A DNA stretch of 39,224 bases, taken from sequence record MZ398247.1; one strand, 5' to 3'. The position numbers and the translations under genes are program-made. The stretch comes from Enterobacteria phage IME177. The notes beneath the pieces were generated by a model. That model saw only the letters and a list, made by a program, of their open reading frames with translations, made no database searches and was not told the origin of the DNA. This document shows, piece by piece, positions 1-29,740 of the stretch. The first letter of the stretch is position 1. Every line of letters starts with the position of its first letter.

Positions 1-1228
1 TGGAGTCCCAATTTTCCGTGACCTAGCCTTCCGTAACAAGAAGGTTGGGGCCTCAGAGATTAAGGACCTGCACAATGTTATCTTCGGTAAGGAACTGGAT
101 GACTCAATCCGTCCGTCTAAACAGGATGTCATTGACCGTCTGCGATCTTACAGTGACCTCGGTCGTGGTACAGCTACAGCTCTGGGGACTGCCAAGTATT
201 ACACTGGCGAACTTGCAGTACGCTCTCCGTTCACTAAACTCCTCAACGGTACGACCAACTACCTGTTAGATGCTGGACGTCAAGGCTTCCTGTCTGACAT
301 CGTGGAGCATAGCCTGACTGGTAGTAAGCGTAAGTTCGATGACCGCTGGCTTAAGACCGCTGGTATCTCTGACGAGCAGTGGAAGGGCATTAAGTCCCTC
401 ATCCGTGAGTCAGTGACTCGTGGTCCAGACGGGAAGTACACCATCAAGGATAAGAAGGCGTTCAGTCAGGACCCAAGGGCTATGGACCTGTGGCGTATGG
501 GTGACACCATCGCAGATGAAACGTTACTCCGTCCTCATAAGCTGTCCAACATGGACGCCAAGGCTTATGGTCCTCTCGCTAAGACTGTCCTTCAGTTTAA
601 GAACTTCGTCATCAAGTCCATCAATGGTCGAACCATGCGAACATTCTATAACGCCACGAAGAACAACCGAGCGATGGACGCTGCACTGTCTACTGTGATG
701 TCTATGGGTCTGGCTGGTATCTACTACATGGCTCAGGCGCACGTCAAGGCTTACGCTATGCAGGACGGTCGAGACCGAGATTATCTCAAGCAAGCTCTGG
801 ACCCAACGATGATTGCCTATGCGGCCCTGTCCCGTAGTTCACATCTGGGTGGACCACTTGGGGTAGCTAACATTCTAGGTGGCATCGCTGGGTATGAGGA
901 CACTAAGATGCTCCGTTCGTCTATCCTCCCGCGTTCACCTACAGAGAAACCCGAACGTGCCATCTCATATGGTGCGGCTACAAGTGACCCTGTGATGAAT
1001 GTCGTTGGTAACTTCTTGGAGCAGGTCCCGGCTTTCGGCTATGCTGCTAACGTTGGAGCTTCGGCATACAACTTGGCTGGCTACCTCAAGGCTGATACTC
1101 GTGTCAACGAGCGGGACTACATGACCGGGATGTATAATACGTTCCGTGAACTGGTTCCGAACGACCCGATTACTCAGAAGTTGCTACTGGGAACGTTTGA
1201 GGAGCAAGGTATCCACATCAAGGACTAA
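1..1228 (+). CDS. gp16: internal virion protein D (gp16), C-terminal part; 5' part of the same gene is at 36505-39224 (circular permutation)
   Basis: Frame beginning at nt 2 is open from the window start to the stop at 1226-1228. Translation (GVPIFRD...LLNGTTNYLLDAGRQG...SRSS...NDPITQKLL) is colinear with the C-terminal third of T7 gp16 as recalled. Window end ca + base 1 t completes a His codon. Confidence 0.9.
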   Translation, partial: GVPIFRDLAFRNKKVGASEIKDLHNVIFGKELDDSIRPSKQDVIDRLRSYSDLGRGTATALGTAKYYTGELAVRSPFTKLLNGTTNYLLDAGRQGFLSDIVEHSLTGSKRKFDDRWLKTAGISDEQWKGIKSLIRESVTRGPDGKYTIKDKKAFSQDPRAMDLWRMGDTIADETLLRPHKLSNMDAKAYGPLAKTVLQFKNFVIKSINGRTMRTFYNATKNNRAMDAALSTVMSMGLAGIYYMAQAHVKAYAMQDGRDRDYLKQALDPTMIAYAALSRSSHLGGPLGVANILGGIAGYEDTKMLRSSILPRSPTEKPERAISYGAATSDPVMNVVGNFLEQVPAFGYAANVGASAYNLAGYLKADTRVNERDYMTGMYNTFRELVPNDPITQKLLLGTFEEQGIHIKD

Positions 1229-1246
1229 ACTATCACTATAGGAAAC
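1224..1246 (+). promoter_or_regulatory. phage RNA polymerase promoter (phi17-like), predicted +1 at 1241
   Basis: actaaactatcactataggaaac; TCACTATAGG core identical to T7 class III promoters; 50 nt upstream of the tail fibre gene. Confidence 0.8.
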
Positions 1247-1292
1247 TGGAGGCGCTACCATAGGTCTCCGTTTAAATAACAAAGGAGGCATA

Positions 1293-3824
1293 ATGTCCAC
1301 GATTACACAATTCCCTACAGGAAACACTCAGTACAGGATTGAGTTCGACTACCTAGCCAGAACGTTTGTTGTTGTTACGCTGGTGAATAGCTCTAACCCT
1401 ACCCTGAACCGTGTACTGGAAGTTGGTCGAGATTACCGATTCCTTAATCCAACGATGGTTGAGATGTTGGTTGACCAATCAGGTTTCGACATCGTTCGCA
1501 TTCACCGTCAGACTGGAACTGACTTAGTGGTAGACTTCAGGAATGGCTCAGTGTTGACAGCTAGTGACCTGACCAATTCAGAGCTTCAGGCTATCCATAT
1601 TGCAGAAGAAGGTCGAGACCAAACGGTTGACTTAGCGAAGGAATATGCCGATGCTGCTGGTAGCTCTGCTGGCAACGCTAAGGATAGCGAGGACGAAGCA
1701 CGCCGAATCGCTGCGAGTATCAGGGAAGCTGGTCTAATTGGCTATATTACCCGTCGCTCCTTCGAGAAAGGCTACAACGTTACAACATGGAGCGAGGTCC
1801 TGCTATGGGAAGAGGATGGTGATTATTACCGCTGGGATGGTACGCTTCCAAAGAGTGTTCCTGCTGGTTCAACTCCTGAAACTTCCGGTGGGATTGGATT
1901 AGGTGCGTGGGTTAGTGTTGGTGATGCTGCTTTAAGAAGTCAGATTTCAAACCCGGAAGGGGCAATACTCTACCCGGAATTGCAGATGGCAAGATGGCGT
2001 GATGAGGGTGATGTTCGAGGCTGGGGTGCTAAAGGGGATGGTGTAACAGATAGTACGGAGAATATAGCCGCTTCACTAAATTCTCAAAAAGCTGTCGTAG
2101 CATCAGAAGGTGTATTCTCTAGTTCTGGTATTAATAGTGATTACTGTAACTTAGACGGTAGAGGCAGTGGGGTGCTAAGTCACCGTTCCAGTACAGGTAA
2201 CTACTTAGTATTTAACAATCCACGTACAGGTCGCTTAAGTAATATTACGGTAGAAAGTAATAAGGCGACGGATACCACTCAGGGACAGCAGGTATCTCTT
2301 GCTGGTGGCAGTGATGTTACGGTAAGTGACGTTAACTTCTCAAACGTTAAAGGTACTGGTTTCAGTTTAATCGCATACCCTAATGATGCGCCACCTGATG
2401 GGCTTATGATTAAAGGCATTCGAGGTAGCTATTCCGGCTATGCCACTAATAAGGCGGCTGGATGCGTACTTGCTGACTCCTCAGTTAACTCCCTCATAGA
2501 TAACGTCATTGCTAAGAACTACCCTCAGTTCGGAGCTGTAGAGCTGAAAGGTACAGCCAGTTACAACATAGTTAGTAATGTTATAGGGACAGATTGCCAG
2601 CATGTAACCTACAACGGTACTGAAGGGTCAATAGCTCCTTCTAATAACCTTATCAAGGGGGTAGTTGCTAATAATCCTAAATATGCAGCGGTTGTTGCAG
2701 GCAAAGGTAGTACCAACTTAATCTCCGATGTGCTTGTAGATTTCTCAACCTCTGATGCTAGGCAGGCTCATGGTGTTACAGTAGAAGGTCCTGATAACGT
2801 CATAAATAATGTGCTTATGTCAGGGTGTGATGGTACTAACTCTTTAGGGCAAGCTCAAACTGCTACAATTGCACGCTTTATAGATACAGCTAATAACAAC
2901 TATGCGTCTGTATTTCCTAGCTACAGTGCTACAGGTGTTATTACTTTCGAATCAGGTTCTACCCGTAACTTCGTAGAGGTAAAGCATCCGGGAAGGAGAA
3001 ACGACCTTCTCAGTGCTACTGGTACTATTAGCGGTGCAGATACTATTGACGGCACTAATAATAGCAACGTAGTGCACGCCCCTGCATTAGGGCAGTACAT
3101 AGGCAGTATGTCCGGTAGGTTCGAATGGCGGATTAAGTCCATGTCACTTCCATCAGGGGTTCTTACCTCTGCGGATAAGTACAGGATGCTTGCCGATGGG
3201 GCTGTGTCATTAGCTGTAGGCGGAGGTACTTCTTCTCAAGTACGCCTGTTCACTTCTGACGGCACTTATAGGAATATATCACTTACTAGCGGTAACGTGC
3301 GTCTTCCTACCAGTAGCACAGGTTATTTGCAGTTAGGTTCTAATGCAATGACCCCAGATAGTACTAATACATACGCATTAGGTTCCGCAAGTCGAGCATG
3401 GTCTGGCGGTTTTACTCAATCAGCATTCACTGTTGTCTCAGATGCTAGGGATAAAACAGAGCCTCTTAATATCTCAGATGCTTTACTGGATGCTTGGTCT
3501 GAAGTTGACTTTGTGCAGTTTCAGTACTTGGACCGAATTGAGGAGAAGGGTGCAGACTCAGCTAGATGGCACTTCGGCATCATCGCTCAGCGAGCTAAGG
3601 AGGCCTTCGAACGTCACGGTATAGATGCACACCGCTATGGCTTCCTGTGCTTCGACAGTTGGGATGATGTATACGAGGAAGATGCCAATGGCTCTCGTAA
3701 ACTGATTACACCAGCAGGTTCCCGCTACGGTATTCGTTACGAGGAAGTACTGATATTAGAGGCTGCGTTGATGCGGCGTACTATTAAGCGTATGCAGGAA
3801 GCATTAGCTGTTATGTCTAAGTGA
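1293..3824 (+). CDS. gp17: tail fibre / tailspike protein: T7 gp17-like N-terminal anchor + pectate-lyase-3-like beta-helix domain + C-terminal intramolecular chaperone (peptidase S74-like) domain
   Basis: 843-aa ORF with RBS aaaggagg. N-terminus (EFDYLARTFVVVTL...HIAEEGRD) resembles T7 gp17 N-terminal domain; WGAKGDGVTDSTENIAASL is the hallmark start of pectate-lyase-3 beta-helix domains; C-terminus carries SDARDK...RWHFGIIAQRAKEAF, the pattern of self-cleaving chaperone domains of phage tailspikes. Confidence 0.88.
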   Translation: MSTITQFPTGNTQYRIEFDYLARTFVVVTLVNSSNPTLNRVLEVGRDYRFLNPTMVEMLVDQSGFDIVRIHRQTGTDLVVDFRNGSVLTASDLTNSELQAIHIAEEGRDQTVDLAKEYADAAGSSAGNAKDSEDEARRIAASIREAGLIGYITRRSFEKGYNVTTWSEVLLWEEDGDYYRWDGTLPKSVPAGSTPETSGGIGLGAWVSVGDAALRSQISNPEGAILYPELQMARWRDEGDVRGWGAKGDGVTDSTENIAASLNSQKAVVASEGVFSSSGINSDYCNLDGRGSGVLSHRSSTGNYLVFNNPRTGRLSNITVESNKATDTTQGQQVSLAGGSDVTVSDVNFSNVKGTGFSLIAYPNDAPPDGLMIKGIRGSYSGYATNKAAGCVLADSSVNSLIDNVIAKNYPQFGAVELKGTASYNIVSNVIGTDCQHVTYNGTEGSIAPSNNLIKGVVANNPKYAAVVAGKGSTNLISDVLVDFSTSDARQAHGVTVEGPDNVINNVLMSGCDGTNSLGQAQTATIARFIDTANNNYASVFPSYSATGVITFESGSTRNFVEVKHPGRRNDLLSATGTISGADTIDGTNNSNVVHAPALGQYIGSMSGRFEWRIKSMSLPSGVLTSADKYRMLADGAVSLAVGGGTSSQVRLFTSDGTYRNISLTSGNVRLPTSSTGYLQLGSNAMTPDSTNTYALGSASRAWSGGFTQSAFTVVSDARDKTEPLNISDALLDAWSEVDFVQFQYLDRIEEKGADSARWHFGIIAQRAKEAFERHGIDAHRYGFLCFDSWDDVYEEDANGSRKLITPAGSRYGIRYEEVLILEAALMRRTIKRMQEALAVMSK

Positions 3825-3928
3825 GTAATACTGGTACGGTATTTTCTCACAATGAAATCGTTGAACACGCTAACCAACGTATGTAACAACTTTGGGTCAC
3901 GGACGACCCGCTTTAAACTGGAGGTTTT

Positions 3929-4123
3929 ATGATTGAGTTAGACTTCAAGAATGAGGTCCTTAAAGCCTCTCCTATCGTCGGGACCGCTGCGGCTGATGGT
4001 GCCAGTCGGTTCTTCTTCGGACTTACACTAAACGAATGGTTCTACGTTGCAGCTATCGCGTACACCGTTGTCCAGATTGGTGTGCTAGTCTACAAAACGA
4101 TTAAAGGAGGTGGTAAAACATGA
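3929..4123 (+). CDS. gp17.5: holin (T7 gp17.5-like)
   Basis: 64 aa, one TM segment, ...PIVGTAAADGASRFFFGLTLNEWFYVAAIAYTVVQIG closely matches T7 gp17.5 as recalled; RBS ctggagg. Confidence 0.85.
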   Translation: MIELDFKNEVLKASPIVGTAAADGASRFFFGLTLNEWFYVAAIAYTVVQIGVLVYKTIKGGGKT

Positions 4124-4383
4124 CGCAGATGGACTTAGAGAAGTTCCTCTTAATGCTAGATACTGAACGTGCTCGACTCATGCTGCAAGACCTGCGGGAT
4201 GACACTAAGCGTTCACCCCAGCTTTACAACGCCATTGAGAAGCTACTGGCTCGTCACAACTTTGTGTTAAGCAAGGTGTCCGTGGACGAGAAGACGCTGG
4301 CTGATATGGAGGCCCTGAACGCAGAGTACGATAAGGTGCTTTCAGCGACTGAGGATAATGACACCGGGTATGGTGTTCAATAA
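4120..4383 (+). CDS. gp18: terminase small subunit (gp18-like)
   Basis: 87 aa, start overlaps holin stop (ATGA); ...RSPQLYNAIEKLLARH matches T7 gp18 pattern; position upstream of large terminase. Confidence 0.8.
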   Translation: MTQMDLEKFLLMLDTERARLMLQDLRDDTKRSPQLYNAIEKLLARHNFVLSKVSVDEKTLADMEALNAEYDKVLSATEDNDTGYGVQ

Positions 4384-28588: not shown

Positions 28589-28690
28589 CCAAGATACAGA
28601 CTCAAGGTTCCCCTATTACTTCAGTCCATACGGATTGGGCGTAAAGCAAGTAATAAACTTTATCTTTCAATTGAATAGGAGAATTATCAT

Positions 28691-29740
28691 ATGGCAAACG
28701 TTCCGGGTCAGAAAGTAGGTACAGACCAAGGTAAAGGCAAATCTGGTTCCGACGCTCTGGCGTTGTTCCTGAAGGTCTTTGCTGGCGAAGTCCTGACCGC
28801 ATTCACTCGCCGCTCTGTAACTGCTGACAAGCATATTGTCCGTACAATTCAGAACGGTAAGTCTGCTCAGTTCCCGGTCATGGGTCGCACCTCTGGTGTG
28901 TATCTGGCTCCGGGTGAGCGACTGTCCGATAAGCGTAAAGGTATCAAACATACCGAGAAAACAATTACCATTGATGGTCTGCTGACTGCCGATGTGATGA
29001 TTTTCGACATTGAAGACGCGATGAACCACTATGACGTGGCTGGTGAGTATTCCAACCAGTTGGGTGAAGCTCTGGCTATCGCTGCTGATGGTGCGGTTCT
29101 GGCTGAAACGGCTCTCTTGTGTAACCTCCCAGCTGCATCCAACGAGAACATCGCTGGTCTGGGTACTGCGTCCGTACTGGAAGTTGGTACGAAAGCTGAC
29201 CTCAACACCCCGGCTAAACTGGGCGAAGCAATCATCGGTCAACTGACCATCGCTCGTGCGAAACTGACCTCCAACTACGTTCCTGCTGGCGACCGTTATT
29301 TCTATACAACGCCGGATAACTATTCTGCAATCCTCGCGGCTCTGATGCCGAACGCTGCTAACTATGCTGCGCTGATTGACCCAGAGACTGGTAACATCCG
29401 TAACGTAATGGGCTTCGTGGTTGTTGAAGTCCCACACTTGACTCAGGGTGGTGCTGGTGAAACTCGTGGTGATGATGGTATCACTATTGCGACTGGTCAG
29501 AAGCACGCCTTCCCAGCTACTGCTACTGGTAATGTTAAAGTTGCTCTGGACAACGTTGTGGGCCTGTTCTCTCACCGTTCTGCTGTGGGTACTGTGAAGC
29601 TTCGTGACTTGGCGCTGGAACGTGACCGTGACGTTGATGCTCAGGGCGACCTGATTGTTGGTAAGTACGCTATGGGTCACGGTGGTCTGCGTCCTGAAGC
29701 GGCGGGTGCGCTGGTTTTCACAGCAGCGTCAGCGGGCTAA
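28691..29740 (+). CDS. gp10A: major capsid protein (gp10A-like)
   Basis: 349 aa, codon usage typical of highly expressed gene (cgt/ctg/ggt rich); strong RBS ataggag; follows phi10-like promoter and precedes Tphi-like terminator. Confidence 0.96.
   Translation: MANVPGQKVGTDQGKGKSGSDALALFLKVFAGEVLTAFTRRSVTADKHIVRTIQNGKSAQFPVMGRTSGVYLAPGERLSDKRKGIKHTEKTITIDGLLTADVMIFDIEDAMNHYDVAGEYSNQLGEALAIAADGAVLAETALLCNLPAASNENIAGLGTASVLEVGTKADLNTPAKLGEAIIGQLTIARAKLTSNYVPAGDRYFYTTPDNYSAILAALMPNAANYAALIDPETGNIRNVMGFVVVEVPHLTQGGAGETRGDDGITIATGQKHAFPATATGNVKVALDNVVGLFSHRSAVGTVKLRDLALERDRDVDAQGDLIVGKYAMGHGGLRPEAAGALVFTAASAG

Follow-up and report, generated by a model that had tools for sequence, protein, structure and literature searches.

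Gene 17 of the T7-like coliphage IME177 very probably encodes a K5 capsule lyase tailspike that sits on a K1F/T7-type anchor, ends in a self-cleaving Peptidase_S74 chaperone and owes its body to the exchange of an enzymatic cassette. IME177 belongs to the genus Kayfunavirus and is K1F-like; the window, that is, the whole stretch of DNA that was analysed, is 39,224 nt long (MZ398247.1). The spike is of a well-known kind and its architecture, which is already known, holds no novelty. Solved structures at 93% and 98.5% identity can be taken to settle its fold, and 13 near-identical phage genes its distribution. The features to which we refer are these:

1224..1246, + strand: phage-RNA-polymerase promoter, core ACTATCACTATAGG, a repeated motif directly upstream of gene 17
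1281..1288, + strand: ribosome-binding site AAAGGAGG, read from the sequence, 4 nt before the ATG at 1293
1293..3824 (stop included), + strand: gene 17, 843-aa tailspike precursor of 90.3 kDa (ORF call, ATG start)
1293..1742, + strand: T7 gp17-type tail-attachment domain and short Ala/Glu-rich neck, to about aa 150 (Pfam, PDB, K1F DNA)
1758..1925, + strand: Tail_spike_N (PF18668), TSP1/Gp66-type N-terminal domain, aa 156-211 (Pfam)
1965..1975, + strand: left recombination junction at about aa 226-230 (AIL/YPELQMARW), from K1F-like anchor to K5-lyase cassette
2016..3440, + strand: K5 (heparosan) lyase body, aa 242-716, corresponding to KflA 31-505 (2X3H and KflA alignments)
3438..3455, + strand: predicted autoproteolysis site SDARDK, aa 716-721, with S716 as nucleophile, K721 as base and cleavage expected after S716
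3441..3821, + strand: intramolecular chaperone domain of the Peptidase_S74 class, aa 717-843, 14.7 kDa (Pfam, PDB)
3835..3874, + strand: non-coding endosialidase-gene relic of 40 nt, 10 nt past the stop, equivalent to K1F gene 17 codons ~994-1006 (TVFSHNEIVEH)

Gene 17, its expression signals and its relatives

Gene 17 is the sole long ORF across 1293..3824 in the ORF list, and its protein is identical in sequence to QYC97309.1, the GenBank entry from phage IME177 that is labelled "hypothetical protein". Its neighbours are gene 16 on one side and the holin gene 17.5 on the other, an arrangement also present in K1F and R1. Genes 8-16 follow the T7 order and a second fibre or spike gene is absent. 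Since gene 17 is thus the only fibre or spike gene of this structural module, the earlier proposal that it is the main host-range determinant of the phage is reasonable.

As read from the sequence, gene 17 is served by its own phage promoter and by a strong ribosome-binding site. Across the window the motif ACTATCACTATAGGAAA has 10 copies on the + strand, where 0.1 would be expected, and the consensus of the aligned promoter sites is ctaaactatcactataGG(G/A)A. The copy at 1224..1246 overlaps the stop codon of gene 16 (1226-1228), and by analogy with T7-type promoters transcription would start (+1) at G1241. Searches within 1000-4200 gave no excess over shuffled sequences of either sigma-70 promoters (3 vs 5.2) or intrinsic terminators (1 vs 2.4). 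The relevant promoter of gene 17 is of the phage-polymerase type, not sigma-70.

The closest structure is PDB 9VVR ('Tail spike protein', 843 aa), which is identical to the gene 17 protein at 830/843 positions (98.5%, E=0). The two are collinear over their full length and have the same architecture, differing by 13 substitutions, and the 18 chains of the 843-aa spike sequence in 9VVR make 6 trimers. An assignment of 9VVR to phage vB_EcoP-R1 was ruled out, the R1 spike having a different set of 12 substitutions, and a literature search found no paper that mentions 9VVR. At the nucleotide level, the full gene is present at an identity of at least 95.6% in 13 other Kayfunavirus genomes, in several of which it has been named a K5 lyase (PMC8614997). 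The protein also matches PHROG 14895, which is of the K5-lyase type (aa 209-843, E=0), and a search of it against NCBIfam matched 0 families. Literature searches on the hosts of AN24P4, PDP21P1 and AN17P1, or on K5-specific T7-like phages, returned nothing specific. The sole paper on IME177 has been retracted.

The lyase body and the predicted receptor

The evidence for a K5 lyase comes from the body of the spike. A PDB sequence search aligned aa 242-716 without gaps to 2X3H, the KflA protein of coliphage K5A (93% identical, E=7e-282), and BLASTP against KflA extended the match to the C terminus (aa 242-843, 560/602 identical or 93%, 0 gaps). A 149-residue core (aa 284-432) has 0 substitutions relative to KflA. 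Within aa 254-716 there are 30, clustered at aa 575-590 and 659-692 in the stalk, where they could modulate binding. In the same alignment E417, K419, H437 and Y440 are identical to KflA E206, K208, H226 and Y229; E417, K419 and Y440, with H437 nearby, are what we take to be the candidate catalytic residues, and the roles of their KflA counterparts reportedly stem from Thompson et al. 2010. KflA is a right-handed parallel beta-helix with its catalytic site in a groove (PMC8822698), and lyase activity on the K5 polysaccharide is documented for both KflA and K1-5 ORF46 (PMC5380687). Judging from these alignments, the lyase body of IME177 qualifies as a right-handed single-stranded parallel beta-helix trimer with an intertwined C-terminal stalk, in agreement with the depolymerase module that the sequence-only reading had predicted.

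The likeness to KflA (Y10025; PDB 2X3H), to near-identical 632-aa Vectrevirus spikes and to K1-5 ORF46 takes in the beta-helix, the stalk and the S74 chaperone, and the DNA identity of gene 17 to KflA-type genes is 92-93%. The difference lies at the ends. KflA, at 632 aa, begins with an N-terminal peptide of only ~30 aa, which fits into an adaptor that is a protein of its own in SP6-like phages (PMC5380687), whereas the IME177 spike has a K1F/T7-type anchor of ~230 aa fused in cis. The two genes differ, too, in their last three codons and in the 3' flank.

Because the body is 93% identical to KflA and its relatives carry the name K5 lyase, the K5 capsule of E. coli is the predicted receptor. 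A capsule, EPS or O-antigen had been proposed before in place of the rough LPS core; the alignments support a capsule and would narrow it to K5 (heparosan). We infer the enzyme activity, K5 specificity, processing and stoichiometry of the IME177 spike as parts of one mechanism. The gene 17 product would be the only receptor-binding protein, a trimer expected in six copies per tail, docked through aa 1-~230 (T7 N-domain, short helical neck and TSP1/Gp66-type domain). Its lyase body (aa ~242-716) would bind heparosan, -4GlcA-beta1,4-GlcNAc-alpha1-, and cut the capsule by beta-elimination, so that the virion tunnels through to the outer membrane.

The same body could be read in other ways. The KflA fold might have shifted in function, such that the spike binds heparosan, glycans resembling heparan or a different capsule of group 2 but fails to cleave it efficiently and serves mainly as an adhesin. 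A precedent exists in ES17-TFP, a distantly K5-lyase-like fibre of a T7-like coliphage, which bound heparan sulfate while capsule depolymerase activity was undetected (PMC7885116), and the mature part of the IME177 spike does carry the 30 substitutions relative to KflA. However, ES17 is a distant match and the IME177 spike is 93% identical to an active enzyme, the substitutions cluster in the distal stalk, and the invariant core and the four candidate catalytic residues are kept, so that we consider a pure adhesin very improbable. Less credible still is a generic depolymerase of the pectate-lyase family PF12708 (Pect-lyase_RHGA_epim, formerly Pectate_lyase_3), directed at O-antigen or EPS and not at a capsule. 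A pectate-lyase-3 signature had been placed at nt ~2018-2070; the motif is there (WGAKGDGVTDSTENIAASL, aa 244-262, nt 2022-2078), and the identity to KflA argues for a beta-helix lyase, but assignment to the Pfam family fell, since the match to PF12708 (aa 241-366, E=0.019) reaches 15.2 bits, under the cut-off of 27. That weak match speaks for the generic reading, as does the GAxGDGxTD motif with which the beta-helix opens, a motif common to many spikes, including the K1F endosialidase. Against it stand the score and the near-identity of this region to a K5 capsule lyase of known biochemistry and structure. The spike resembles PF12708 in fold class and should not be filed as a member; the family to which it properly belongs is that of the K5 lyase KflA.

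With a K5 lyase as the preferred reading, the "hypothetical protein" of IME177, vB_EcoP-R1 and several other Kayfunavirus records becomes a tailspike that can be named with confidence, and the name predicts a host range, namely K5-encapsulated E. coli. Gene 17 would also point to a ready-made, predicted heparosan-cleaving enzyme. K5 is a common extra-intestinal capsule type and is found in strain Nissle 1917 as well. The unsulfated N-acetylated domains of mammalian heparan sulfate have the same chemical structure as heparosan, and it is therefore conceivable, if rather doubtful, that the spike also tethers the virion to, or trims, epithelial or mucus heparan-sulfate proteoglycans, which would bring the phage to the mucosa of the gut or urinary tract, the habitat of K5 E. 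coli. For the ES17 fibre, a distant relative, a comparable mucosal placement has been suggested (PMC7885116).

The C-terminal chaperone

The S74 chaperone domain claimed for the C terminus is borne out by its Pfam match and by structural alignments. Peptidase_S74 (PF13884) matches aa 716-776 with E=5e-14 and 52.7 bits, well over its cut-off of 22, and the matching structures are 3GUD (1e-23), 3GW6 (5e-19), 7Y5S, 6EU4 and 4UW8, the five together spanning E=1e-23 to 7e-9. A Ser-x4-Lys dyad, S716/K721, is present at the domain boundary with the spacing of SNGERK in K1F and SDERHK in GA-1. The alignments with the K1F and GA-1 structures bring the dyads into register: SDERHK forms the first residues of 3GUD (GA-1), and the 3GW6 chain (K1F) carries Ala at the position of the dyad Ser. 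In KflA, the Ser aligned to S716 is the very last residue of the 2X3H chain. Further into the domain, RWHFGIIAQRAKEAF lies at aa 759-773 (nt 3567-3611). Chance does not account for these features, given the Pfam and PDB matches.

By analogy with these proteins, the chaperone is predicted to be released after trimerisation by a cut after S716. It would drive trimer folding and then cleave itself off through the Ser716/Lys721 dyad, turning the 90-kDa precursor into a mature spike of 75.6 kDa and a fragment of 14.7 kDa. That the mature spike instead keeps its S74 domain, to serve as a distal tip or as a knob for receptor binding, seems to us distinctly improbable. All 843 residues are listed in PDB 9VVR, which favours retention, but a deposited sequence is that of the construct or gene and not of what was modelled, and an entry with the full 843-aa sequence is thus silent on chaperone removal in the virion. 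The intact dyad, aligned to the K1F and GA-1 chaperones, and the KflA crystal chain that stops at the homologous Ser both argue against retention, as does the maturation of the K5 lyase from a 67-kDa precursor to 52 kDa (PMC5380687).

Anchor, junction and 3' flank

The N terminus had been described as a T7-type anchor of ~150 aa. The anchor stands: Phage_T7_tail (PF03906) matches aa 10-115 with E=5e-15 and 55.9 bits (cut-off 25.2), and the T7 gp17 N-terminal structures 7BOZ, 8DSP and 8E4G were matched by aa 6-116 in the PDB sequence search. Its extent had to be revised, since the conserved, exchangeable part is the first ~230 aa, which IME177 has in common with K1F. These include a TSP1/Gp66-type domain that was missed at first, to which PF18668 assigns E=8e-19 and 67.9 bits (cut-off 25); the CBA120 TSP structures 4OJ5, 5W6H and 6NW9 match aa 151-263. 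A further Pfam match, LEA_4 (aa 104-132, E=0.018), was dismissed as noise, the Ala/Glu-rich neck being of low complexity. With T7 gp17 itself the spike shares the tail-attachment domain (aa 6-116 vs T7 12-122, E=2e-15) and has no homology to it beyond aa ~116. T7 gp17 continues as a coiled-coil shaft with a non-enzymatic tip that binds rough LPS.

K1F, the Kayfunavirus type species, agrees with IME177 in promoter position, in the flanking genes 16 and 17.5 and in chaperone class. Its gp17, the endosialidase endoNF (1064 aa), has a sialidase beta-propeller and stalk specific for the K1 polysialic acid capsule, in contrast to the K5 lyase of IME177, and beyond aa ~253 the two spikes are 13-46% identical. 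Over its first ~675-759 nt, gene 17 matches its K1F counterpart at 95.8% identity. A comparison in 30-nt bins shows full agreement with K1F (100%) as far as window position 1969, then 73-80%, then background, and at 1970 identity to the K5 lyase gene of phage UE-S5b jumps from 66% to 93-100%; the protein alignment agrees.

Among candidates for the donor type, this K5 lyase of UE-S5b, an N4-like Gamaleyavirus (PP301341, 784 aa), comes first. Between aa 231 and the C terminus the two spikes agree at 587/613 residues, with 0 differences after aa 684, and the stop codon and the next 16 nt are identical too. The UE-S5b protein has another N-terminal adaptor (<35% identity before aa ~180), and its gene adjoins a separate endosialidase gene in a 73-kb Schitoviridae genome. 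An ElmA-like prophage or chromosomal copy in E. coli was also considered and rejected, as a megablast search of the lyase cassette against 5,426 complete E. coli genomes gave no match.

The 3' side preserves a remnant of an endosialidase gene. The 40-nt relic matches internal stretches of two genes, K1F gene 17 and the endosialidase gene of UE-S5b, at 37/40 positions, and its frame-2 translation reads TVFSHNEIVEHAN against TVFSHNEIVEHTD in K1F. It is flanked on one side by 16 nt of UE-S5b-type K5-lyase 3' sequence (to 3840) and on the other by K1F-type 17/17.5 intergenic DNA (100% from 3865). In 13/13 K5-lyase Kayfunavirus records the relic is contiguous with the stop of the K5 lyase gene, and in 37 other records it lies inside endosialidase-type spike genes. 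Its position just after the stop indicates that the K5-lyase cassette overwrote an endosialidase, and we infer the direction of exchange accordingly from the sequence: a cassette most like the Gamaleyavirus (N4-like) type would have taken the place of the endosialidase portion in a gene 17 of the K1F type. The more modest reading is that the relic records how the K1F lineage switched directly from the K1 to the K5 capsule, with a cassette from an N4-like phage.

The junctions and the relic together would make a clean, datable case of T7-like phages changing capsule specificity: anchor and 3' flank are conserved, and the enzymatic cassette that lies between them is exchanged. The cassette swap as a principle has been familiar ever since K1E, K1-5 and K1F were studied; the K1F-type gene start and the 40-nt endosialidase relic are one small addition.

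Domain content and K5-lyase body of the gene 17 product

Gene 17 is a single long open reading frame with an ATG start, and both its extent and the motifs quoted in the sequence-only reading were recovered: WGAKGDGVTDSTENIAASL at aa 244-262 (nt 2022-2078), SDARDK at aa 716-721 (nt 3438-3455) and RWHFGIIAQRAKEAF at aa 759-773. The promoter directly 5' of the gene overlaps the stop codon of gene 16, and its motif recurs in the window, with 10 copies where chance would give 0.1. Pfam domains were called at curated thresholds.

1229-1245, + strand: gene 17's own phage-polymerase promoter, motif ACTATCACTATAGG, from motif enrichment
1229, 6778, 9535, 12855, 14537, 15951, 24748, 27575, 28571 and 33117, all + strand: the 10 K1F-type phage-RNA-polymerase promoters, consensus ctaaactatcactataGG(G/A)A
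1281-1288, + strand: strong ribosome-binding site AAAGGAGG of gene 17, from the sequence
1293..3824, + strand: gene 17, 843 aa
aa 10-115: Phage_T7_tail, Pfam, E=5e-15, above threshold
aa 156-211: Tail_spike_N (TSP1/Gp66 N-terminal domain, PF18668), Pfam, E=8e-19, above threshold
aa 716-776: Peptidase_S74, Pfam, E=5e-14, above threshold

The T7-type anchor and the S74 domain that had been proposed for this protein were thus both confirmed. Its supposed pectate-lyase-3 signature fared worse: PF12708 (formerly Pectate_lyase_3) did match at the claimed place (aa 241-366), but under the family cut-off (15.2 against 27 bits, E=0.019), and the filing was rejected. A search of NCBIfam with the gene 17 protein matched no model.

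At the sequence level, a search of the PDB was decisive for the nature of the middle part. Residues 242-716 aligned without gaps to the chain of 2X3H ("K5 lyase", E=7e-282), the structure of KflA, the K5 (heparosan) capsule lyase tailspike of coliphage K5A, and the full-length protein was identical at 830 of 843 positions to 9VVR, an 843-aa "Tail spike protein" whose 18 chains of this sequence make up six trimers. Compared by BLASTP with the full 632-aa KflA (Y10025), aa 242-843 showed 560/602 identities, with zero substitutions in aa 284-432; the 30 substitutions in aa 254-716 clustered at aa 575-590 and 659-692. KflA residues E206, K208, H226 and Y229 are kept as E417, K419, H437 and Y440, and positions 206, 208, 226 and 229 are those that Thompson and colleagues reportedly proposed in 2010 as the catalytic site. 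KflA, a K5 polysaccharide lyase, is a beta-helical trimer with its catalytic site in a groove; a beta-prism or triple beta-helix comes after the beta-helix (PMC8822698).

The near-identity to KflA and 2X3H supports the earlier depolymerase interpretation and sharpens it to a K5 heparosan lyase. A generic pectate-lyase-family depolymerase for O-antigen or EPS, to which the sub-threshold PF12708 match might point, seems unlikely beside that near-identity. An adhesin-only spike, or one of altered specificity, could be imagined from the clustered substitutions, yet with all four proposed catalytic residues retained it too appears improbable.

As to the C-terminus, aa 696-843 matched 3GUD, the chaperone of the GA-1 neck appendage (1e-23; chain starting at SDERHK), 3GW6, that of the K1F endosialidase (5e-19), and further self-cleaving fibre ends (7Y5S, 6EU4, 4UW8). 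In the alignment with solved chaperones, Ser716 and Lys721 sit at the positions of the Ser-x4-Lys dyad, and the 2X3H chain (KflA plus 37 N-terminal residues) has its last residue exactly at the serine aligned with Ser716. These observations point to autocleavage after Ser716, which would convert the precursor of 90.3 kDa into products of 75.6 and 14.7 kDa (computed masses); a chaperone that stays uncleaved on the spike is the less probable reading.

All the sequence-level features tested for were found, and by these the gene 17 protein belongs among the KflA K5-lyase tailspikes, with a K1F/T7 anchor fused in front and an S74 chaperone behind. In the proposed mechanism, spike trimers would attach to the tail via the T7 gp17-type N-domain, the beta-helix would bind the K5 capsule and cleave it by beta-elimination, giving the virion access to the outer membrane, and the S74 domain would help the trimer to fold and then remove itself. 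The architecture and the enzyme are public already, and so are near-identical genes and the solved structure of a near-identical protein. The additions are modest: a correct functional name for the exact protein deposited as "hypothetical protein" (QYC97309.1, Enterobacteria phage IME177), and an endosialidase relic documenting cassette replacement.

Cassette junctions and the endosialidase relic

The modular reading held, refined by the extra PF18668 domain and by an exchangeable anchor of ~230 aa. The first 633-759 nt of gene 17 share 93-99% identity with ~150 Kayfunavirus-type phages bearing other spike bodies, and K1F, whose gene 17 encodes an endosialidase, is 95.8% identical over nt 1-759. 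In 30-nt bins, identity to K1F was 100% through window position 1969 and decayed after it, and identity to the K5 lyase gene of phage UE-S5b (Gamaleyavirus) rose from 66% to 93-100% at 1970. We therefore place the left crossover near aa 226-230, between AIL and YPELQMARW, upstream of the GAKGDGVTD motif common to K1F, KflA and the gene 17 protein. The cassette core (aa 271-420) is nearer to K5A; no difference from UE-S5b occurs in the last 159 residues, the stop codon or the 16 nt that follow it. The cassette has a GC content of 42-48%, its flanks one of 50-53%.

3835-3874: non-coding 40-nt endosialidase-gene relic, 10 nt after the gene 17 stop, 37/40 identical to the K1F and UE-S5b endosialidase genes

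The counterpart of this relic lies in the interior of the K1F gp17 endosialidase gene (codons ~994-1006), and in one frame it reads TVFSHNEIVEHAN, against TVFSHNEIVEHTD in K1F. Its joints fall at the short microhomologies TACGGT and ACAC, and from 3865 on there is 100% identity with the K1F 17/17.5 intergenic region and holin gene. In 13/13 K5-lyase Kayfunavirus records the relic is contiguous with the stop codon of the lyase gene, and the same 40 nt occur within endosialidase-type spike genes in 37 others. The simplest inference is one event that put a K5-lyase cassette in place of the endosialidase body, and of most of its chaperone, in a K1F-like gene 17; we infer likewise the direction of exchange and the donor type. 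Such a replacement would be a switch of capsule specificity from K1 to K5.

Distribution of the cassette and genome setting

Full-length gene 17 was present in 13 other phage records, all Kayfunavirus, at 95.6-98.9% nucleotide identity, and its counterpart in the MZ2340xx Kayfunavirus phages, CDS 002, has already been named "K5 lyase" (PMC8614997). On its own, the lyase cassette was found at ~93% DNA identity in Vectrevirus phages as 632-aa spikes, in record Y10025 of the K5A lyase gene (placed under Zindervirus) and in N4-like Gamaleyavirus phages of 73 kb, where it belongs to a 784-aa "K5 lyase" gene adjoining an endosialidase gene. This side-by-side pair (UE-S5b record L004, 1-5918) is a K1-plus-K5 dual-spike arrangement as in the SP6-like phage K1-5. 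The cassette was absent from all 5,426 complete E. coli genomes searched by megablast.

Three of the matching records call for comment. Gene 17 of Escherichia phage ZG49 (L006, NC_047777, 1501-4741) holds a 711-nt tandem duplication within the K5-lyase body, equivalent to window 2632-3342, and its annotation splits it into two 'tail spike' CDSs (686 and 386 aa); the duplication could be genuine, accompanied by a frameshift, or could have arisen in assembly. The host label of 'Acinetobacter phage vB_Aba_01KA' (PV615262.1, hit H39) looks doubtful, because the record is ~93% identical to the IME177 coliphage genome. In vB_EcoM_SHAK7854 (OR594182.1, hit H3) the tailspike match coincides with features annotated as terminase, holin and spanin, suggesting that its annotation coordinates are shifted out of register.

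The window is the complete 39,224-bp IME177 record, circularly permuted to begin inside gene 16; its closest genome is that of Escherichia phage vB_EcoP-R1 (Kayfunavirus; 96.5% across 99% of the first 25 kb). The sole paper describing IME177 drew an expression of concern and was then retracted in 2025. Gene 17 is preceded by the C-terminal part of gene 16 and followed by the holin, small terminase, spanin and large terminase genes. Since genes 8-16 stand in T7 order and no second fibre or spike gene was found among these structural genes of the window, gene 17 encodes the sole receptor-binding protein. A small hairpin (GGGTC-ACGGAC-GACCC, 3894-3909) lies 20 nt 5' of the holin start, is 100% conserved with K1F and is without the T-run typical of an intrinsic terminator. 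Elsewhere, a 337-aa ORF on the - strand (28667-29680) runs opposite the major capsid gene (28691-29740, + strand) and is probably a spurious shadow ORF.
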